Shown here: positions 11,106-44,487 of the stretch, one piece after another
Layout: each line of letters starts with the position of its first letter
How positions within the stretch are numbered: position 1 is the first letter of the stretch
IMG/VR virus record: IMGVR_UViG_3300027914_000334
Span: 32,001 to 96,000 of that record
From: a virus
Taxonomy: Duplodnaviria > Caudoviricetes
Direction: 5' to 3' (one strand)
Length of the DNA: 64,000 nt
Notes under the pieces: model-generated
Database searches by the model: none
What the model was told of the DNA's origin: nothing
Seen by the model: the letters and a program-made list of their open reading frames with translations, nothing else
Program-made: the position numbers and the translations under genes

Positions 11106-11799
11106 TTGATTTCATCCATTCTTCTAAAAAATTTATAGCGTCCTGTTCTGTTAAAAACCATCCTAAATGTTTTTTATATTTTACAACTCTCCACTTTTCT
11201 TTTGCTTTACGGCAATGAGAGTATGATACTCCTGTAACTTTTGAAGTTCTATTGCATTTATTATGTGGTTGGCTTTTAATAACTCCAGAATAATCTATAA
11301 CATCTGGATAATTTAATATGGCAAATTCTCCACGCTTTTCTCTAGCTTCCTTATCATATGCTAGGGCTGCAATATTTGCTGTCTTATAATATCCAATCGA
11401 TTTACCATCTATGGACGCTTTATAACAATTTTGACTTTCCTTTGTAACACCAATAAACCCACATTCGTTTGGAGTTCTAATGGAATTCCACGCATTACCT
11501 TTGTAATCTGTCAATCTTAAATTTTCTTTTCGATTATCAAGGCGATTATGATTCTTATGGTCTATAACTACACCATCTCCAATTTCCAAATTAAACACAT
11601 ATCTATGAGCAATTATATTTTTTTGAACAATATTATTTTTTGAATGGCTTCCAGATATATGTTTTACAGTAATGGCATAGCCATCATGATAGTACCACTT
11701 ATGTTGTATAAATTTCTCATAATCCTCATCATCTACTAACATTACTTTTCCACAGCCACTATTACCGTTAAGTTTAATTTCTTTCATATTTCCCTCCAT
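11083..11799 (-). CDS. free-standing HNH-AP2 homing endonuclease
   Basis: LVDDED, IDHKNHNRLDNRKENLR, AP2 motif GYY.T...AALAYD..A....GEFA.LN, second AP2-like repeat. Confidence 0.9.
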   Translation of the reverse strand: MEGNMKEIKLNGNSGCGKVMLVDDEDYEKFIQHKWYYHDGYAITVKHISGSHSKNNIVQKNIIAHRYVFNLEIGDGVVIDHKNHNRLDNRKENLRLTDYKGNAWNSIRTPNECGFIGVTKESQNCYKASIDGKSIGYYKTANIAALAYDKEAREKRGEFAILNYPDVIDYSGVIKSQPHNKCNRTSKVTGVSYSHCRKAKEKWRVVKYKKHLGWFLTEQDAINFLEEWMKSNENKENN

Positions 11800-14778: not shown

Positions 14779-15416
14779 ACGTTAAACTTTTGCGATATAC
14801 GAAAGACCCGCTCCAAACAATCATAGATGCCTATCGGCGTTGTCATTTATCAGAAGAAAAGTCCGATACACAATGCGAATGTATTGGTGATAGTGATGAA
14901 AAACTGCTCAAGAAGTGTATTAAGTTAGGACACCATTCACCTTTGGAGTTTGTAGATTTTGAATTTGATATCACTCTCTCTAAGGTTGCCGATAGACAAT
15001 TGTGCCGTCATAGAATGGCTTCCTATGCTGGAGAGAGCATGAGATATGTCACAGCTAATGATTATTTTACACCCAAGACTATATTCAATAACGATAAGGC
15101 AATGTCTATCTTTATGGCATCGATGTTGCACTCGTTTTCCAAGTACCAAGAACTTATAGAAAACGGGGTGAATATTGAAGATGCACGATATGTATTACCT
15201 CTGGCAACTACTGGCAAGTTTCTTTATAAGACCAATCTTAGATCACTCAGAAACGCTATTGCCGAAAGAACCTGTAAATACGCACAGACCGAAATAAGAG
15301 AAATCTTCTTACAGATAAAGGAACTTGTAGCGAGTATCCAGCCTATTTTCCTTTATCGAACAGAAAAGATGTATTCCTGTGAAGTTAAGTGTGGACAGTG
15401 TATGGGAGTTATGTAA
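14775..15416 (+). CDS. thyX: flavin-dependent thymidylate synthase
   Basis: GHHSPLE, RQLCRHRMASY..ESMRY, EDARYVLP, AQTEIR. Confidence 0.95.
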   Translation: MNVKLLRYTKDPLQTIIDAYRRCHLSEEKSDTQCECIGDSDEKLLKKCIKLGHHSPLEFVDFEFDITLSKVADRQLCRHRMASYAGESMRYVTANDYFTPKTIFNNDKAMSIFMASMLHSFSKYQELIENGVNIEDARYVLPLATTGKFLYKTNLRSLRNAIAERTCKYAQTEIREIFLQIKELVASIQPIFLYRTEKMYSCEVKCGQCMGVM

Positions 15417-22362: not shown

Positions 22363-22391
22363 TTGACATGGCGTTAATCTTGGTGTATCAT
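22363..22391 (+). promoter_or_regulatory. sigma70-type promoter
   Basis: TTGACA-N17-TATCAT with TG extension, intergenic. Confidence 0.7.
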
Positions 22392-27247: not shown

Positions 27248-27289
27248 AAGAGACTCCTATTATCGAAAAATAGATAATAGGAGTCTCTT
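27248..27289. terminator. long hairpin after rIIB, overlapping a promoter -35
   Basis: AAGAGACTCCTATTATC ... GATAATAGGAGTCTCTT. Confidence 0.6.
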
Positions 27290-27316
27290 GACAACAGGGT
27301 GGTGTTTTGATATATT
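27288..27316 (+). promoter_or_regulatory. sigma70-type promoter (probably a leaderless mRNA)
   Basis: TTGACA-N17-TATATT; ATG 27323 lies 7 nt after the -10. Confidence 0.65.
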
Positions 27317-35383: not shown

Positions 35384-35422
35384 AAAAAAGAGGCTAGGTT
35401 TATTTCCCTAGCCTCTTTTTTT
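35384..35422. terminator. bidirectional intrinsic terminator
   Basis: AAAAAAGAGGCTAGG-loop-CCTAGCCTCTTTTTTT. Confidence 0.85.
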
Positions 35423-36812
35423 GTATATATTATATGCGAGTTTAAAAACATACCGGGGGGTCTTCAAGAATTTGGAAAACAAAGATGTTTTCTGTATATA
35501 TGCAATCGAGTAGATGCAATAGAGTAGATGCAATAAGGGAATAAATTGGGATAGATTAGCGTAACAACACGGGATATGCCTTTTGTTTTAAATATCTAAA
35601 GGGTAAATAATTGGGATAAGGTAATACTTGCTTTTGTTTTTGGTAAATATTTAATAAGGGAATAATCTGTAGGATAGGGATGGATAATATATTTTGGCTG
35701 ACGTATAAGAAGTGAGTTGTAGTGAGGCCCGGTGGCTTGCCGATTTTTGGAAATGCTAACATTTTTCTGTACCCTCAAATCCGCATGAACACTAGCTTTC
35801 CCGGCATTTCCCGGCATGAAAACGTATACCTTGAAATAATCTACCCTTACAGAACGCCGTAGTAATGCGGCTTTGAGGGAGTACGCCGTTGTGTAACAGA
35901 TATAATATCGGATAAAAAAGTTAGTACGGTACTAACAGATATACTACCATATAAGAAAGTTAGTACGGTACTAACACGGGAAATTGACTTAGTAAAATAT
36001 TTCCCTTGATTATCAGAATAACGATAATATATCCACAGATATCTACCTTGTTCACTTGGTTATCAGATAATTGATAATATATACACAAGTATACTTCCCT
36101 GTCTGGCCCTGTCTGGATCGGCGCATTCATCGCATACGGGAAAACATGCCCGTACGGCCCCGGAAACGGCCCGCCATTGCGTCGAAACTGGCATGGTCAA
36201 GATAATATTCAAACGCCCACCTAAATCGTCCTACGGGCACGCCAGACGGCTTAGAATGGAGAATGTTGTACTGAAGCCCTAAAGCACCGCACAAAAAAGG
36301 GTAAAAATAGAGAATTCTTTATAAATCCCGTTTTGATTTTATCGCGTGCGTGAATCGCACACAACATGCCTCAAAGCCGCATTACTACAAGGTTTCAATG
36401 GATCGTAAAATAGCATAGTATGCTATATTCTATTGATAGAAAGCTAGTGTTCATGCGGGTTTGAAGCTTGTGCATTTATCGCACGCGATGAGAAAAACGT
36501 GCGCTTTTCACACAACATAAAGAATTCTTTATCCGGTTTCTCATGCCTCAAAGCCGCACCAGTAAAGGATTCTAGCGATAGTTTGTGAAAAATTGAAAAT
36601 CTGGAAAAGCGGGAATGGCCTTGAACACCGCACCAGTAAAGGATTCCAGCGGGATAGTATATCGGTCGATATTTGGCCGATAGGCTAGAATACAGGGGTT
36701 TCCGGCCTTACCTAAAACGTGAACCCGCTGACATAGGCTTCAATACAAGCGTTAGCGGGGCATGAAAAATATTTTGCCTCTAGGAACCGCACCAGAAGCG
36801 GTGTTTCAAGAG
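35423..36812. repeat. ~1.4 kb non-coding region with direct, inverted and palindromic repeats (origin/terminus/enhancer candidate)
   Basis: exact 20-bp IR 35859-35878/36369-36388; ~26-bp IR 35775-35800/36439-36464; duplicated GTTAGTACGGTACTAAC; CCGCACCAGTAAAGGATTC x2. Confidence 0.8.
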
Positions 36813-36829
36813 TTGGCACGGCGATTGCA
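36813..36829 (+). promoter_or_regulatory. sigma-54 (-24/-12) promoter
   Basis: TTGGCACGGCGATTGCA matches YTGGCACG-N4-TTGCW; hairpins start at the expected +1 (~36840), followed by an RBS and ATG 36918. Confidence 0.75.
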
Positions 36830-36917
36830 AGTATAAGCTCGTCCGGTTTGGGATCGACCCCCAAACCGGACGACCCGCCGGTTTTACGGCGGGAAATCGA
36901 ACCTAAGAGGTGTCATC

Positions 36918-37115
36918 ATGATTGACTTGAACCGCTTGTCTCAGCTTCAAGAAATGGCGCGAGTTGTCCAGAACTCGCCCGAATACCAGCTCACGCGGAC
37001 GTTGAACCGTATGATCCGCATCGGTAAGGCGTCGACGGCCGACCATGTCGTTTTGGCTGACAAGGCCGAGACCGCCATGATGCCCGTGTACGAAAAGAAC
37101 GTCTCGAAAAACTAA
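36918..37115 (+). CDS. first gene of the putative early region, hypothetical
   Basis: AAGAGGTG RBS; GC-richer codon usage. Confidence 0.65.
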   Translation: MIDLNRLSQLQEMARVVQNSPEYQLTRTLNRMIRIGKASTADHVVLADKAETAMMPVYEKNVSKN

Positions 37116-37282
37116 CATCTTTGTCAAGGCCGTACTATGCCGCGAAAACCGGCATAGTACGGTACGGCCTTGACATCTTTACCTAGCATGTTTTCCGCCT
37201 TCGGGCCGATACATGCAGGAAGAGTACGCATGTTTTCTATTGAGCGAGTGAAACCTTGCTTATATAGGAATACTGCGTACGA

Positions 37283-37705
37283 TTGAGAGGTAGTATGGAT
37301 AGGAAAACTTGGTTACTCAAGACATCACGTCAAGGGTATCTTGACGGCCGTGCCATGATTAACGAAGTCAAGTCAATTCGGAAAGAATTGAGACTTGACG
37401 AAAGAACGGCCGTAATTGTCGATACCTTACTTGACACGGCACGCCGGGAAAGAATTATCGGCATACCATACAATTTTAACGCTTATCTTTTACAATGTAA
37501 GCGTCAAAAGATAGAATATGCTATCTCTGACCATATCAAGGGGGGTTTGTATCTCGACTTGCGTTCATGTTCTGATAAACAACGAAACTATTTCCTGCAC
37601 GGCCTAAAATCGGCAAGCTTGCAGGAAACCGTCGGCACCGACACCGACGTAAAATACGGCGCAACTGCCAGATTGAGCCCGACCGTGCAGAAAATGCGGA
37701 AATAA
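37283..37705 (+). CDS. hypothetical protein
   Basis: ORF followed by the first repeat element. Confidence 0.6.
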   Translation: MRGSMDRKTWLLKTSRQGYLDGRAMINEVKSIRKELRLDERTAVIVDTLLDTARRERIIGIPYNFNAYLLQCKRQKIEYAISDHIKGGLYLDLRSCSDKQRNYFLHGLKSASLQETVGTDTDVKYGATARLSPTVQKMRK

Positions 37706-37812
37706 AAAAAAAGGATTTTACCCTGCATAGAAATATGCAGGGGTATTCTTGTTTGAGGACGTTTTGACACGTTCCTCGAAATAAACCATTTCTATATAAA
37801 GAGGGATATATT

Positions 37813-37893
37813 ATGTCAATTATTATACCGATATCTTTATTTTGTGCTGGTTTCCTGTCAAGGGAACTATTGTTGCTTATCGACTACAAGTAA
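37813..37893 (+). CDS. 26-aa hydrophobic micro-ORF
   Basis: GAGG RBS; sits alone between two repeat elements. Confidence 0.45.
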   Translation: MSIIIPISLFCAGFLSRELLLLIDYK

Positions 37894-37991
37894 GTCAATG
37901 CCTTGCATTTACCTTTACAGGTAGTATGCAAGGCATTTCCTTGTTTGAGGGAAGCTAAATTCCCTTCAATATATTTCAAAGGAGAACTAAT

Positions 37992-38210
37992 ATGTTGAAT
38001 GAAAATCAGCTACGTAACATGGAAGGATTGAAGTTACAAGAAATCAAGTCTCCCCTTTCACGTCTCTCTCAGGGCAATCTTCCCGATCTCGTTCGGCTCA
38101 ACGGACGAGATTATGAGATGTTGTATCGCTCAGGCGATATAACAGTGTGGAATCTTCTGGGGAAGTTCAATTCCATCCCCACCAAGACCTTGCTCTTGAA
38201 AGTAGAGTAA
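37992..38210 (+). CDS. hypothetical protein
   Basis: AAAGGAG RBS after a repeat element. Confidence 0.65.
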   Translation: MLNENQLRNMEGLKLQEIKSPLSRLSQGNLPDLVRLNGRDYEMLYRSGDITVWNLLGKFNSIPTKTLLLKVE

Positions 38211-38458
38211 GGAAAGGATATGGAAATTGCAATCGTTTTGTTTATTCTATTCGGCATGAGATAAGATAACTCGATCCCCTGCATACTTGGAATATGCAGG
38301 GGATTTCCTTGTTTGAGGGAATTATTTTCTATATATAGAAAATCTAGGTTTTTGTTTACCTAGAAATTCTATGTATCCCTCATCCCAAGCCGATTTTCAT
38401 TTTCGGCTTGTCAAAAGAAATTCTAATTTGCCTATAATATATCAAAGGAGTTATATAT

Positions 38459-38617
38459 ATGGATGAAGTAAATGAAATTATCGAAAGATTGAAAAATTCG
38501 AATGAGGAGGAAGCTAAAGACTTCCTCCTTATCGACCTTTACGAGCGGTACGGCAAGGATAAATTCACGCCGTACCTCCTTCTGACCTCCGTGATAAGGA
38601 GGTTATTGAACAAATAA
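38459..38617 (+). CDS. 52-aa hypothetical protein (not in the ORF track)
   Basis: AAAGGAG RBS; MDEVNEIIERLK...; followed by a repeat element. Confidence 0.6.
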   Translation: MDEVNEIIERLKNSNEEEAKDFLLIDLYERYGKDKFTPYLLLTSVIRRLLNK

Positions 38618-38706
38618 AACTCTATCCCCTGCATAGAAATATGCAGGGGATTTCCTTGTTTGAGGGAAGTTAAATTCCATTCAATATATTTCAAAGGAGA
38701 TATATT

Positions 38707-38976
38707 ATGCATCCAAGTAATATTAAAACGATTGGCGCGGCAAGATGGATTTCGGATAATCTTGCCGAGTTCAAGGCCAAAAACGTCAACGATACAAAAA
38801 CGTTGACCGATGAAGAACAAGCCGCGTACGCAGAATTGGGCTGGCAACGTTCGAACGTTGTTGTCCTTGCCGACCATATCGAACGCCTCTACAAAGAGGC
38901 GCATATCATGGAAATGAAAATCCTGAAGTTACAAGCCATTATTGACCATCTCTCAGATAAGGAGATGGAAGCGTAA
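38707..38976 (+). CDS. hypothetical protein
   Basis: AAAGGAG RBS after a repeat element. Confidence 0.65.
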   Translation: MHPSNIKTIGAARWISDNLAEFKAKNVNDTKTLTDEEQAAYAELGWQRSNVVVLADHIERLYKEAHIMEMKILKLQAIIDHLSDKEMEA

Positions 38977-38984
38977 AATAATGC

Positions 38985-39013
38985 TTGACATGTCGTAGGG
39001 TGGTTATTATATT
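38985..39013 (+). promoter_or_regulatory. sigma70-type promoter
   Basis: TTGACA-N17-TATATT; shares AGGGTGGT and TATATTCATC with the 27288 promoter. Confidence 0.7.
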
Positions 39014-39135
39014 CATCCTATGACATGGGAAACAAAGAATAGCAAATCCCGGTCAGAAATGGCCGGGATTTTCTAGGTTGTAGGCAGTCAATTCGCTTGA
39101 ACAGCCTACAAAATATACCACTACAGGAGTCTTTT

Positions 39136-39702
39136 ATGAACACCAATTCGAATCAGGGAACCCTCGACCTCAACAACACGACCGAAACCCAGAACAACGT
39201 GACCGTCCTTCCTCCGGTTCTGGAACCGAAGAAGCGGGTACGGAAGCCTCTTTCCGAAGAGGAAAAAGCAGAGCGTGCAGCGGCTGAAAAGGCGAAGCGC
39301 AAGGAAATCAGACAGGAAGTCGTTAAGGAACTTCTGGCTTCCATGAACGAAGCCGAGCGTGCCGCCGCTACCGACGGATTCTCTGATGAATTCTTTTCGA
39401 TGCAGGAAAAGGTTGCGGAACTTGTCGATATTCGCTACAAGGCGTTCAAGAAATCCACCAAGGGAACGAAGAAACCGCGCAAGGCGTTCGACGTTCTCGA
39501 CTATCTGAAGCGCAAGATGTCCGAAATCGCCTTCGACCTCATGCATACGGAATTCAAGTCGAAGAAGACCGGCGAAGTTCGCAAACTGTCCTTCACCATC
39601 GACCAGTGGAAGGAAGCGGGTGAATTCGGATTCTTAAATCCGAAGCGTCGCGAAACCCGCGTTCGCAAGTCGAAGGCTGATAAAGTCGCAGAAACCAAGT
39701 AA
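39136..39702 (+). CDS. highly codon-biased, basic/charged hypothetical protein
   Basis: CAGGAG RBS; Lys/Arg/Glu-rich, possibly nucleic-acid binding. Confidence 0.7.
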   Translation: MNTNSNQGTLDLNNTTETQNNVTVLPPVLEPKKRVRKPLSEEEKAERAAAEKAKRKEIRQEVVKELLASMNEAERAAATDGFSDEFFSMQEKVAELVDIRYKAFKKSTKGTKKPRKAFDVLDYLKRKMSEIAFDLMHTEFKSKKTGEVRKLSFTIDQWKEAGEFGFLNPKRRETRVRKSKADKVAETK

Positions 39703-39796
39703 TCAGCTTACACAAGGAAATCCCGCCAGAAATGGCGGGATTTCCTTGTTTGAGGCAATATAAATTTTGCCTTAATTAAATCTAAGGAGAATTGTT

Positions 39797-40084
39797 ATGT
39801 TACACAATGACGACAATTATAAGTCCTTCCATATCACCAGTGTTCTGTTAAACAGAATTAACAAACGAGTTAATAGGTGCCGCTTAGATAAGCGGCTCAA
39901 TAACAATTCGTTTTTCAAAACCTACAATAAAGGTGCTGTGTGCTATCATTACCGCTCACAGCATAAACACTACGTTGTTATGCTGTTTAAGGGTGGAATG
40001 AAGCTTTACTCTACCAATGGAGTAAGCTTCTCCGGTACCTCTCTAGCTACACATTCTGTTATAGAGGGAGTCTTCGGAATATGA
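39797..40084 (+). CDS. hypothetical protein
   Basis: AAGGAG RBS after a repeat element. Confidence 0.6.
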   Translation: MLHNDDNYKSFHITSVLLNRINKRVNRCRLDKRLNNNSFFKTYNKGAVCYHYRSQHKHYVVMLFKGGMKLYSTNGVSFSGTSLATHSVIEGVFGI

Positions 40085-40296
40085 GATACTATGTTCAGTT
40101 CTTAGATGAAAACAAGAAAAGTATTTCTTTAGGTAACGACGGTTCATTTATAAAGGATTTCCCGCTCGTAAGAGCAAGGAAAACCATTGATATGTATATG
40201 AAATACAATCCTCTTAGAGATGAGATACACTACGCGGCTATTCACATATTCTCCTTCTCAGACAGCAAACCAATACTTACATTAAAACTTAAATAA
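40081..40296 (+). CDS. hypothetical protein
   Basis: ATGA overlap with the upstream ORF. Confidence 0.6.
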   Translation: MRYYVQFLDENKKSISLGNDGSFIKDFPLVRARKTIDMYMKYNPLRDEIHYAAIHIFSFSDSKPILTLKLK

Positions 40297-40382
40297 ACTC
40301 CACTACCCTGCATAGAAATATGCAGGGATTTCCTTGTTTGAGGGAAGTTAATTTCTCTCTACTTTAATCAAGGAGAAATACA

Positions 40383-40826
40383 ATGAAAACACATTTGTTG
40401 GATTTTGACGTACCAACAAGTAAGCCGATGCATAGCCTTTGCGGAAAGCCGTTTGTATGGCTTTCCAACGAAGGCAAGGCATCATGTCCAATCTGTAATC
40501 GTATTCGTGAGATACAGAAACGTTCAGAGCTTATCCAGAATGTTCTCAAGGAAGAGTGTTCTGGTAGCGGGATTGACTGTGAGTGGGAGTTTGAACAGAA
40601 GAAAGGAGTTCTTTACGCTAAGAATTCATTTCACACGATGAACGATGCCGGTTATTACGTTGGGTACGCAGACTTTACGTTGCGTATCGACGTTACAATA
40701 CCAGAAGAGTTTGTATTGACCTTTAACGGTCAGCGTTCTCATGTGTTAAATCGTCGTTATATGCTTAGGGAATATCTGGAAGATACCTTTGCATATGCTC
40801 TTACGAAACCGGCATTCAATATCTAA
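40383..40826 (+). CDS. conserved-looking phage hypothetical protein (SGSGID...SFH.M...GYY.G motif)
   Basis: AAGGAG RBS; motif recalled from phage hypotheticals. Confidence 0.65.
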   Translation: MKTHLLDFDVPTSKPMHSLCGKPFVWLSNEGKASCPICNRIREIQKRSELIQNVLKEECSGSGIDCEWEFEQKKGVLYAKNSFHTMNDAGYYVGYADFTLRIDVTIPEEFVLTFNGQRSHVLNRRYMLREYLEDTFAYALTKPAFNI

Positions 40827-40915
40827 CAACATATCCCTGCATAGAAATATGCAGGGATTTCCTTGTTTGTAGGCAATTATATTTGCCTACACAAACTACC
40901 AAGGAGGCTTACCAT

Positions 40916-41839
40916 ATGGTAAAGCGCAAGAACATTTTCACGGCTGTTGATGCTGAAGGTAATCCGATTGACCTAATCGGTTACACGATTGCGTGGACGG
41001 GAATGAAACGCGAATATAACATGATGGATGTCATTTCCGCGTTCAAAAACAACAATCTCCCTGTTAAGCATCTCGAAAAGGGGAAGGAACGAATTTCCTT
41101 CGTTCTTCGTGCTTTGAACAAGGCAAAGCAGGATATGCTTCTTCGTGAAGTGGAAAAGGGAGATACCACAATCCGCTACCAGTTCACAAAAGAGTACGTG
41201 GACACAATGCCCGATGGAACGCTTTACAAAGCTTTCCGTCCTGAAGAGTTCGTTGTGTATGACAAGGTGAATGACAGGTTACTTGCCGAAACTCCTGAAA
41301 AGGAAAAGTTTCTGCACGAACTTCTTCGGCATTGCTCCGAAACGTTCACGAATTCCGATGTAACTCGTTACATACAGGCGTTGTTTAACGAAGCGTCGAT
41401 GATCCCTCTTCGTGGAAGAGGATCGATGTACTTCGTTCCTGCTAAATACACTACGTTAGTCCATTCTGTAAAGTCGATGTTCGAAACCATCGATCCAGAT
41501 GGATGGTTCACCCTTATTGAAATGCCTGACCTCAAGTTCACGAAGGAAAGTGTTAAATCTTCCTTCGAAAACGATATGGCAAGCAAGCTTGCCGATCTCA
41601 AGGTGGAGATGGAAAAGCTTCAGGAGAAGGACGGTATTACTCCGAGAGTCTATCGTGCCAGAATGGAAGAGATTGGCAGGTGGGCTAAGGACTTGGAGAT
41701 GTATACTGAACTGACACAGTATACCTTGGAAGATGCGAAAGACGTTATCAAGGAAGCTTCCACACTTCTAACGACCTTCATGGAGAATGGTGAGCTTCCC
41801 GGTGATGCTCCTGCCGAAACTCCGACCGAAGAAGCCTAA
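40916..41839 (+). CDS. DUF3150/DUF6744-like protein
   Basis: IPLR.RG..YFVP followed by a coiled coil; precedes the AAA/VWA pair. Confidence 0.55.
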   Translation: MVKRKNIFTAVDAEGNPIDLIGYTIAWTGMKREYNMMDVISAFKNNNLPVKHLEKGKERISFVLRALNKAKQDMLLREVEKGDTTIRYQFTKEYVDTMPDGTLYKAFRPEEFVVYDKVNDRLLAETPEKEKFLHELLRHCSETFTNSDVTRYIQALFNEASMIPLRGRGSMYFVPAKYTTLVHSVKSMFETIDPDGWFTLIEMPDLKFTKESVKSSFENDMASKLADLKVEMEKLQEKDGITPRVYRARMEEIGRWAKDLEMYTELTQYTLEDAKDVIKEASTLLTTFMENGELPGDAPAETPTEEA

Positions 41840-41930
41840 TCGTTACATATCCCGGCGTAGAAATACGCCGGGATTTCCTTGTTTGAGGGAAGTTAATTTC
41901 TCTCATAAATTATCTAGGAGGTTTCCAATT

Positions 41931-43067
41931 ATGGAAATCAGAGAAAAGTTGTTGGCTCAAAACACATTGCTCGAAAAGTATATCTTCGAACGTGAAACAG
42001 AGATTGCCCTTATGAACCACATTCTTCTCACGAAGAATCACTCCTTCTATATCGGAGATCCAGGGTGCGCTAAGTCTCTGCTTGTTGATCTCAAGCAGAA
42101 GCTTATCACTGGAATCAAATATTTCTACAATAACTGCCATTCTTACATTAAGACTGGCGAAATCGTTGGGCCTGAAGATATCATGAAACTTAAGCAAGGT
42201 GTTATGGAATTCATTCTTGATAATCACCTTGTAATGTCTCATGTTGCGTTCTTGGATGAAGTTTTCAAGGCACATAAACAGTTGTCTTGCTTATTGCCTG
42301 TTATCAATGAGCGCATATTCTCTCAGAACGGCAACATAGTAAAGTCTCCACTCATGTCTTGCTTCATGGCAAGTAATGAGCTTCCCGGTGATAAGGAACT
42401 ATCTGCTTTTTACAATAGAATCCTGTTTAAGTTCTTCGTTGGTAGCGTAAGTGAATTTGAGACTCAGATTAACCTTCTGTATCTCGATGAGTTGCCTGAG
42501 TTTCCTACCAATCCTTCTTGTGCTATCACAATCGATGAATTGAAACAGGCACAGGCCGATGTTGCTAAGGTAACGATTCCGCGTGAAACAGCGGAAATGA
42601 TCGTTATGCTTGCTAATATCGCAAGAAATGAATTTGTTAAGGTTAGTGATAGACAGATTCGTTGGCTTGCGAAGCCTGTTAAGGCAGAAGCATGGCTTAA
42701 CGGTCGTACTGAGGCAATGCCAGAGGATTGCGAAGTCCTTAAACATTGTCTCTGGAATGATCCGCACAAGGAGCGTGATATCGTATTCTCTCAGGTGAAT
42801 AAAATGTGTAACCAACAGCTTGACGATATCCTTACGAAGCTCGATACCGTTATCGGGCCGAAAGGTATCCTTGCTGATTGGCGTGCGGCTGGACCACAAG
42901 CTAACCATAAGGAAACAGCGGAACAGATTCGTTTAATTAAGAACGAACTGGAAAGCATGAAGCCGTCCGAAAAGAACAAGTCGGAGTACAATCGCGTGTA
43001 TAAGCGCATTTGCGCTGAACATAAGGCTATTCTCCCGTTTGCGGTTAAGCAGATTCAGAACCGCTAA
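41931..43067 (+). CDS. MoxR/RavA-family AAA+ ATPase
   Basis: FERE, GDPGCAKS, FLDEVFKA, INER, ASNELP, VSDR, CLW. Confidence 0.9.
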   Translation: MEIREKLLAQNTLLEKYIFERETEIALMNHILLTKNHSFYIGDPGCAKSLLVDLKQKLITGIKYFYNNCHSYIKTGEIVGPEDIMKLKQGVMEFILDNHLVMSHVAFLDEVFKAHKQLSCLLPVINERIFSQNGNIVKSPLMSCFMASNELPGDKELSAFYNRILFKFFVGSVSEFETQINLLYLDELPEFPTNPSCAITIDELKQAQADVAKVTIPRETAEMIVMLANIARNEFVKVSDRQIRWLAKPVKAEAWLNGRTEAMPEDCEVLKHCLWNDPHKERDIVFSQVNKMCNQQLDDILTKLDTVIGPKGILADWRAAGPQANHKETAEQIRLIKNELESMKPSEKNKSEYNRVYKRICAEHKAILPFAVKQIQNR

Positions 43068-43158
43068 CATACAATCCCCTGCATAGAAATATGCAGGGGA
43101 TTTCCTTGTTTGAGGGAAGTTTATTTCTCTCTAGTAAATTCATAAAGGAGATTGTTAT

Positions 43159-44487
43159 ATGCGTAGTTTTCTAATCAATCGGTTTAGTGATTACATGTAT
43201 AGCAAGAATTCAAAGGCTGATAAAGATTTGAATAACTTGTTATATCAAAATCACTGGAACAGTAACTTCGAAGATAACATGAAAGACCTGTTTTCGGCTT
43301 ATTACAAGAAGGATATGAAGTATAGTGATAAGCCAGATCCTCTATTCAAGGGATTCTTCGATGCCGTTAAGGAAACAAGAGAGTTTGTTGATATGACGGC
43401 TAAAACGAAGGGTAATCCTGTTCTCTCCTACTATGCTACAAAGCGCATGTCGGAAGAGATGAGTAAAGCGATAGCAGGGATGTTCTCAGAACTGAAAGAG
43501 AAATCCAAAGATTTCAACGATCATCCAGATAAGGTCAAAGAGGATGCGTTGAAAGACGCTATCGAAAAGCAAAAGGATTCCATTCGTGCCGCTATGCGCC
43601 ATGCTACGAAGGAAGTAGCAGAGGACGTAGAAAAGGTAGAAGATATAATCTCTACCTGTGGTATCGGAGACGAGAATGGACAGCCTCGTTCTATTGATGA
43701 TTTGCAAAGCATCATCGAACTTGCTAACGATATTCTCAAGAATCCATTATTTAAAGAGATTATCGATATGGCTGGTAGAATCCAGCGTAAAGCCAACTCT
43801 GTTCTTCTAAGTCTATGCAAAGGACAGGGTGAACCCGTTGGCATTGAATTTGGTAAGGAGATTGATAAACTCCTTGCCAGTGAATATGCTATGATGGGTG
43901 ATCCTGATCTTGATACGTTGTTCTGGAAGAATTACGTATCGGAGAACCTTTACCAGTGGGAAGAACGTGGAGAAGAACCACAAGATAAAGGCCCGGTTAT
44001 CGTAGCAATCGATCAATCTGGGTCTATGGATGGATACAAGCGTAAGTATTCTTGTTCCTTCCTGTTTGGTATCTATATGGTATGTAAGAAGTCAAATCGT
44101 CCTCTCTACGTTATCGCCTTCGACGTAAGAACAAAGACTTACAAAATCGAAAGCGAAACGGAAATCTTCAAGGTAATGAAGGAGTTTCTTGGTGGTGGTA
44201 CGTCGTTTGACGCTCCCCTACTGGAAACCATCAATATCTTGAAGAATGAGAAGGAAATGGAGAAAGCCGATCTAATCTTCATCACCGATGGGGAAGCTTA
44301 TATCAAGCAGGAAGTTCTTGATGAGCTTATGGCATACAAGAAGGAAATATCCTTCAATATCATCGGTGCTATGATAGGCTATTCTTACATGGATGTTCTT
44401 GGTAAGTTTGCAGACAAGACATTCAAGATCGATAGCCTTACAGGAACGGAAAGCGTTAAGTTCCTAGAGGAAGCGTTTAGCATCTAA
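43159..44487 (+). CDS. ViaA-like VWA-domain protein
   Basis: KGP.IVAIDQSGSM (MIDAS), GGTSF, ADLIFITDG. Confidence 0.9.
   Translation: MRSFLINRFSDYMYSKNSKADKDLNNLLYQNHWNSNFEDNMKDLFSAYYKKDMKYSDKPDPLFKGFFDAVKETREFVDMTAKTKGNPVLSYYATKRMSEEMSKAIAGMFSELKEKSKDFNDHPDKVKEDALKDAIEKQKDSIRAAMRHATKEVAEDVEKVEDIISTCGIGDENGQPRSIDDLQSIIELANDILKNPLFKEIIDMAGRIQRKANSVLLSLCKGQGEPVGIEFGKEIDKLLASEYAMMGDPDLDTLFWKNYVSENLYQWEERGEEPQDKGPVIVAIDQSGSMDGYKRKYSCSFLFGIYMVCKKSNRPLYVIAFDVRTKTYKIESETEIFKVMKEFLGGGTSFDAPLLETINILKNEKEMEKADLIFITDGEAYIKQEVLDELMAYKKEISFNIIGAMIGYSYMDVLGKFADKTFKIDSLTGTESVKFLEEAFSI

Follow-up and report, generated by a model that had tools for sequence, protein, structure and literature searches.

A putative sigma-54 promoter in an exchangeable regulatory cassette of an uncultured T4-like phage

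The 64,000-nt stretch of phage DNA analyzed here, which we call the window, carries an exact sigma-54 -24/-12 element at positions 36814-36829 on the plus strand, at the head of an array of small genes. On the basis of sequence comparisons, this site is probably a working promoter for host RNA polymerase with sigma-54, opened by an activator and located in an exchangeable cassette. According to the model that we propose, the sigma-54 holoenzyme would bind the -24 (TGG.A) and -12 (TTGC) blocks and wait as a closed complex, which a host AAA+ enhancer-binding activator would then open. We invoke a host activator because the phage encodes none. Transcription would begin around 36840, at the base of a 14-bp hairpin, which would give the mRNA a protective 5' stem-loop. 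The transcript is predicted to cover genes 1 and 2 and to extend to roughly gene 5, being attenuated at the hairpin junctions; beyond that point, an ordinary sigma-70 promoter at 38985 would take over. The cassette, comprising an upstream stem-loop, the promoter, the hairpins, a Shine-Dalgarno (SD) sequence and the ATG, would be exchanged by recombination among related phages, some lineages having the sigma-70 version.

The -24/-12 element and its conservation

The window corresponds to bases 32001-96000 of a 106,693-bp IMG/VR virus record (36.6% G+C; estimated 86% complete). We assign the uncultured phage to a deep branch of the T4-like myoviruses; the record contains the T4-type markers gp20-like portal, rIIA, rIIB and NrdD. 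The best identity to any cultured phage was 28-34% in portal, head-protein and rIIA searches, with matches spread over many host groups, and blastn against cultured phages gave no match. The runs with this stretch are labelled as wastewater, biogas-fermenter, sludge and biofilm metagenomes, a habitat that is indicative only because most runs carry small shares of the stretch. A search for RNA runs covering 35400-39400 of the window yielded none. A strong terminator at 35384-35421 ends the upstream plus-strand operon of small genes. It is separated by about 1.4-1.5 kb of repeat-rich non-coding DNA, which may be an origin, from the promoter and the downstream array of small, hairpin-punctuated ORFs.

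An earlier note on this DNA had claimed an exact -24/-12 consensus, and the claim was confirmed. The element reads TGGCACG (36814-36820), GCGA (36821-36824) and TTGCA (36825-36829), preceded by a T at 36813. Its GG (36815-16) and GC (36827-28) are exactly 10 nt apart within TGGCAC-N5-TTGCW, the pattern of a sigma-54 promoter. The site also fits mrNrYTGGCACGrNNNTTGCWNNw, which is reportedly the extended sigma-54 consensus of Barrios et al. from 1999. No other exact match to the consensus exists in the window or elsewhere in the record, for which 0.009 exact matches were expected on both strands (0.0001 on a single strand of the local 1.5 kb). The motif with two or three mismatches was found at 14 sites elsewhere in the genome. 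A second GG-N10-GC site with two mismatches, TGGCATCGATGTTGCA at 15115-15130 of the window, lies inside a plus-strand gene and is within chance expectation. Between the -12 element and the predicted start lies the AT-rich stretch AGTATAAGCT (36830-36839, plus strand), and the region 3' of the -12 element is also A+T-rich in the alignment of seven lineages described below. From the usual distance between -12 and +1, with GC placed at -13/-12, we expect the +1 position at about 36840.

Conservation of the motif in relatives, which the earlier note had named as a check, was examined by comparing DNA contigs. The gene 1 and gene 2 proteins are rare, all of the occurrences found being in short metagenome contigs, and no relatives emerged from IMG/VR when gene 1, the DUF6744-like protein, rIIB and the junction repeat were used as queries. 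A metagenome pattern scan matched 58 loci, the only kin among them being L060, which is the same as L027, and four near-identical contigs (L016-L019) were not informative. A homologous site on the same strand is present in six further diverged lineages, namely L020 (TGGCACGGCGATTGCA), L023 (TGGCACGGCGATTGCG), L021 (TGGTACGGCCATTGCG), L027 (TGGTACGGCGCTTGCA), L029/L030 (TGGTACGGTACTTGCG) and L031 (TGGCATCGACCTTGCG). Both its strand and its distance to the downstream gene are plausible: in the five of these lineages that were measured, as in the window, the -12 C precedes the ATG by 58-92 nt, with an SD sequence in between.

The seven sequences were aligned without gaps and anchored on GG and GC, so that these four columns were fixed by construction. 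Eight of the 12 positions specified by sigma-54 were invariant (T, GG, A and TTGC), and the N4 spacer varied (GCGA, GCCA, GCGC, GTAC and GACC). Among the 104 flank columns, only four were invariant (motif vs flank, Fisher p = 6e-7), and the identity between lineages amounted to 23-64% in the flanks and 62-100% in the motif; these statistics overstate independence because the lineages are related by descent or cassette transfer. L021 and L027, for instance, are 86% identical over 1.6 kb. Against the background of the phage genome, a 50-nt slot would contain, on one strand, a site that keeps GG and GC with a probability of 5e-4 at up to two mismatches and 3e-3 at up to three. Critical bases and spacing that are fixed, next to a spacer that is free, are what selection for sigma-54 binding would predict.

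The identical 17-mer TTGGCACGGCGATTGCA also occurs in unrelated IMG/VR contigs (L009, L011, L012, L013, L014 and L015), where it is intergenic and located 30-110 nt before an SD sequence and an ATG. Altogether, the exact 17-mer was found in 15 IMG/VR contigs whose flanks, on inspection, have no similarity to this phage. In about eight of these 15 contigs, the 17-mer has the appearance of a true sigma-54 promoter ahead of a gene. The literature may underestimate how common promoters of the sigma-54 type are in viral contigs.

Leader architecture and exchange at the promoter slot

Folding predicted a stem-loop directly 5' of the promoter (36783-36808, plus strand; AACCGC, loop ACCAGAA, GCGGTG). 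Its loop is conserved, and its stem differs in sequence in L020 and L023; a related stem-loop stands ahead of a sigma-70 module in L026. The earlier note had described a hairpin at the expected +1, followed by a second hairpin, a ribosome-binding site and the first gene of the array, and every one of these details proved correct. Hairpin 1 (36839-36873, plus strand) has a GC-rich 14-bp stem, in which 36839-36852 pair with 36860-36873, and a 7-nt loop. The predicted +1 falls at its foot, which places the hairpin at the extreme 5' end of the predicted transcript. Hairpins of other sequence were folded at the same place in L020 and L022, and the same layout was recognized by eye in L023, in L029 and in the partial sequence of a contig from run X4. 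Hairpin 2 (36874-36893, plus strand) consists of a 7-bp stem, 36874-36880 paired with 36887-36893, and the loop GUUUUA. It is nearly identical in L022, and the loop GTTTTA recurs in L020, L022, L023 and L026. Together, the two hairpins reach -45.8 kcal/mol (z = -5.9), and none of 200 shuffled sequences folded equally well. Rfam returned nothing credible near the promoter or the hairpins.

The SD sequence AAGAGGTG occupies 36905-36912 on the plus strand; SD-like motifs precede 48 of 72 genes, as compared to 6.5% of random positions. Gene 1 (36918-37115, plus strand, ATG at 36918) encodes 65 amino acids and belongs to a family of 65-80 aa proteins that comes first in most lineages. A long hairpin at 37123-37174 (plus strand) opens a leader of ~180 nt ahead of gene 2, and hairpins of other sequence take this place in L020, L023 and L026. 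A second inverted repeat, GTACGC...GCGTAC, is found in the leader between genes 1 and 2 (window 37116-37294; L020 759-989; L023 714-908). This leader may be a regulatory RNA.

Gene 2 (37295-37705, plus strand; 136 aa) is present wherever a contig extends that far. Its structural model (pLDDT 76) shows a long helix and a small alpha/beta domain. Foldseek found no match to the model at E <= 0.001, and the best VIA hit (Z 5.6) was to a generic alpha/beta domain, not above background. A kinship with the C-terminal domain of MotA was considered and dropped, the weak rows in question having E values of about 0.8, which is not evidence. Most of the invariant residues of the family lie in the C-terminal tail of ~25 residues (residues 112-136; TD.DV.YGATARL.PT.QKMK), which is disordered in the AlphaFold model (pLDDT below 50). 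This tail looks like a conserved binding peptide. For genes 1-5, no credible Pfam or PHROG match was obtained.

Three related lineages, L022, L026 and L028, carry an A-tract and the sigma-70-type promoter TTGYGY-17-TATATT at the place of the -24/-12 element; the upstream stem-loop and the double-hairpin leader on either side are the same. Thus, the slot is a promoter slot, and the dependence on sigma-54 is optional. L022 is a mosaic: it resembles L026 and L028 through the promoter and hairpin 1 and becomes window-like from GGACGACC onward, that is, in hairpin 2, the SD sequence and gene 1. The crossover maps to the 3' end of hairpin 1. The sigma-54 promoter of L020 is separated from gene 1 by an unrelated gene of 71 aa plus a junction element. 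A biogas-fermenter contig from run X2 joins 36591 to 36860 via 52 unrelated bases and lacks the 268 bp with the promoter (36592-36859), and the contig from run X4 has kept the promoter with a different hairpin 1. The promoter swap, the L022 mosaic, the L020 insertion and the X2 and X4 variants therefore identify an exchangeable regulatory cassette. Its promoter is most likely working and swappable.

Activator, upstream sites and alternative readings

The earlier note had stated that the window contains no sigma-54 activator, and this holds for the whole record. Neither the sigma-54 domains PF04552 and PF04963 (Sigma54_DBD, Sigma54_CBD) nor the activator AAA+ domains PF00158 and PF14532 (Sigma54_activat, Sigma54_activ_2) were detected in the 86%-complete record, and no GAFTGA-like motif was found in its six frames. 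The search of the rest of the genome for an enhancer-binding protein or a sigma-54-like gene, which the note had proposed, thus gave neither in this record. A MoxR-like AAA+ ATPase of the array, at 41931-43067, was rejected as an enhancer-binding protein: it matched only bpMoxR, AAA_5 and AAA_lid_8 in Pfam and has neither PF00158 nor GAFTGA.

The suggestion that the repeats upstream of the promoter are binding sites for a host activator was not supported. The motif ATAGGCTnnAATrCAGGG is present in both orientations in sigma-54 and sigma-70 lineages alike and is absent from the sigma-54 lineage L021, so that it was discarded as a sigma-54-specific activator site. Most lineages have it repeatedly in their non-coding region; copies are located at 28 and 152 in L022, at 283, 420, 523, 647 and 731 in L026, and at 36680-36697 and 36733-36750 in the window. 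In this, it resembles an iteron or a protein-binding array more than an enhancer of sigma-54 promoters. Another upstream sequence, CCGCACCAG, is exact only in the window, L020 and L023. No upstream dyad or site common to all sigma-54 lineages was found. Some enhancer-binding proteins have no DNA-binding domain. This leaves two options, activator sites that differ from lineage to lineage or an activator that needs no specific site. The window, L020 and L023 share an A+T-rich tract between -80 and -60, where a bend or an IHF site would sit; a search for the IHF consensus at the sigma-54 promoter was negative.

With regard to the host, an NrdD scan of genome contigs revealed no relative. The junction repeat had no exact match in 185,579 genomes, and so no spacer or prophage turned up. 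The Bacteroidota -7 motif was not enriched, and the use of SD sequences (48/72 genes) together with TTGACA/TATATT promoters argues against a host of the Bacteroidota type. The sigma-70 promoters and SD-led genes point to a host with ordinary sigma-70 promoters and SD-led translation.

The lack of an activator gene and of a common upstream activator site fits a different role of the element. Sigma-54 holoenzyme bound there could separate the repeat region from the array as a roadblock or insulator, or form a poised complex that seldom initiates. Closed complexes of sigma-54 are stable and silent without an activator, and the site borders the 1.4-kb non-coding region that is a possible origin. 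However, three lineages have a sigma-70 module here, which speaks for transcription as the function of the slot; downstream, a 5' hairpin, an SD sequence and a gene follow at a set distance, and a stem-loop is already present upstream. We consider a roadblock or rarely firing complex improbable.

We give a similarly small chance to the idea that a different protein (a replication initiator, for example, or a regulator from phage or host) binds the conserved block, whose likeness to a sigma-54 promoter would then be coincidental. Conservation does extend beyond the known needs of sigma-54, to a G of the spacer (position 8) and to CAAG at -31 to -28, and the site adjoins the repeat-rich region with its iteron-like motifs. 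Yet the consensus is exact at 12 of 12 positions, with 0.009 matches expected per genome, and the variation falls where sigma-54 promoters tolerate change (position 4, N4 and the last W), whereas GG, TTGC and their spacing never vary. The block also has none of the dyad or direct-repeat symmetry that is usual for regulators.

It is very improbable that a sigma-70 promoter was misread, with TTGGCA as -35 and TATAAG as -10. TTGGCA does match TTGACA in 5 of 6 positions, and TATAAG, TATAAA or TATATA follows in the window, L020, L023 and L029. A spacer of 13 nt is too short, however; the real sigma-70 promoters of this phage have 17-nt spacers, and the TATA-like hexamer is absent from L021, L027 and L031, which retain GG and TTGC. 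Two further identities were rejected, the T4 late TATAAATA box, which is not conserved in L021, L027 and L031, and the Mot box, which has the wrong spacing. Least probable of all is a chance match without function: this is a single site and 14 sites with two or three mismatches exist elsewhere, but the expectation is 0.009 per genome and the position is conserved in six further lineages with flanks of near-random identity.

Reach of the sigma-54 unit and comparison with known systems

The common view is that tailed virulent phages begin on host sigma-70 before redirecting the polymerase. The earlier note had proposed that the sigma-54 promoter gates the start of infection. This proposal was not supported, given strong sigma-70 early promoters elsewhere in the window and the sigma-70-type promoter in the slot of three related lineages. 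The early promoters are canonical and of the type CTTGACA-N17-TATATTCATC. They are located at 22363-22391, at 27288-27316 (plus strand), heading the small-ORF block after rIIB, and at 38985-39013 (plus strand; TTGACA-17-TATATT), inside the array. The three are near-identical, CTTGACA-N17-TAT(A/C)(T/A)T followed by CATC. The latter two have counterparts at the same relative positions in the diverged L021, at 412-440 after rIIB and at 11134-11162 inside the array. The gene 2 protein of L021 is only about 41% identical to that of the window.

The promoter at 38985 precedes a double-hairpin junction, so that not every array junction is devoid of a promoter. With sigma-70 promoters at 22363, 27288 and 38985, the sigma-54 promoter would control at most about five genes. 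We infer both the length and the timing of the transcript; the sigma-54 unit probably consists of gene 1, gene 2 and at most three more small genes (36918-38976). Gene 1 might also be transcribed from weak sigma-70-like sites further upstream, at 35971-36078. Pfam models of AsiA and MotA matched nothing in the phage, a result that says little, as the control models gave no match either.

A more far-reaching reading, which we regard as possible though rather unlikely, is that, in this clade of T4-like phages, the exchangeable promoter-plus-hairpin cassette wires a conserved two-gene module to either sigma-54 or sigma-70. The sigma-54 form would be conditional on a host enhancer-binding ATPase and would act as a built-in sensor of the host state, which recombination switches in and out. 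If this were true, the ATPase could be induced by infection stress (Psp- or Rtc-type) or act without a DNA site.

The earlier note had called phage use of sigma-54 rarely reported, a fair description: the one published example that we found is phage YuA of Pseudomonas aeruginosa (PMC5053324, PMC10914365). Virulent phages that use the sigma-54 of their host are described as rare but not unprecedented, and the development of YuA is stated to depend on host sigma-54 (Ceyssens et al. 2008, as cited in PMC5053324). YuA has a sigma-54-like promoter, P015, with a mapped start site (PMC10914365). The two phages are alike in having a promoter of the host sigma-54 type beside sigma-70 promoters, with neither a sigma-54 of their own nor a reported activator. 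They differ in that YuA is a cultured siphovirus with a known host, studied by promoter trap and start-site mapping, whereas the present case is an uncultured T4-like myovirus with comparative evidence. Here, moreover, the promoter is one exchangeable cassette heading a hairpin-punctuated array. To this precedent, the present phage contributes a T4-like lineage, a site that is single and well placed, and a natural sigma-54/sigma-70 swap.

The closest structural counterparts are the promoter-early stem-loop (PeSL) elements of the T4-type phages RB49/phi1, T4/PST and KVP40/nt-1 (PMC2839356, PMC4122927). They have a stem-loop just 5' of the promoter, and nt-1 has Mot-type versions (PMC4122927). 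Shared with PeSL elements are the series of stem-loop, promoter, SD sequence and start codon and the location on the edges of small, variable genes within a hyperplastic region of a T4-type genome. In the window, the stem-loop at 36783-36808 lies 5' of the promoter, and the SD sequence at 36905-36912 and the ATG at 36918 form the 3' end. Exchange at the element is likewise seen (the extra gene of L020, the mosaic of L022), and the promoter type varies within the class. In contrast to PeSL elements, the window has a -24/-12 promoter instead of a sigma-70 or Mot promoter; -35/-10 elements with a 17-nt spacer are present in L022, L026 and L028. Two extra hairpins lie between promoter and SD sequence, and most downstream array junctions carry hairpins with no evident promoter. 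Having -24/-12 in place of the sigma-70 promoter, the window element is thus PeSL-like in its working and not a classical member. As far as we found, a sigma-54 version is new to the class.

Bacterial sigma-54 promoters such as glnAp2, pspA, nifH and Pu have the identical core and spacing, and the A+T-rich tract at -80 to -60 in the window, L020 and L023 is a further likeness. The phage site differs from them in being viral, in lacking an IHF consensus and an activator site common to the lineages, and in that the activator gene is unlinked.

In a T4-like lineage, a sigma-54 promoter has long been kept in a slot that is occupied by a sigma-70 promoter in relatives, which is in effect a swap experiment done by nature. 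From this, phages seem to tune the timing of a small accessory module by exchanging promoter cassettes, and the concept of PeSL elements as mobile regulatory cassettes would gain a third class of promoter. The cassette pair is directly comparable in vitro though the host is uncultured. The G+C content at the array head (window 36000-44000) is 42-45%, as compared to ~35% in the remaining phage, and the richest part comprises the promoter, the hairpins and gene 1. This raised G+C content suggests a separate origin of the promoter/hairpin/gene 1 cassettes.
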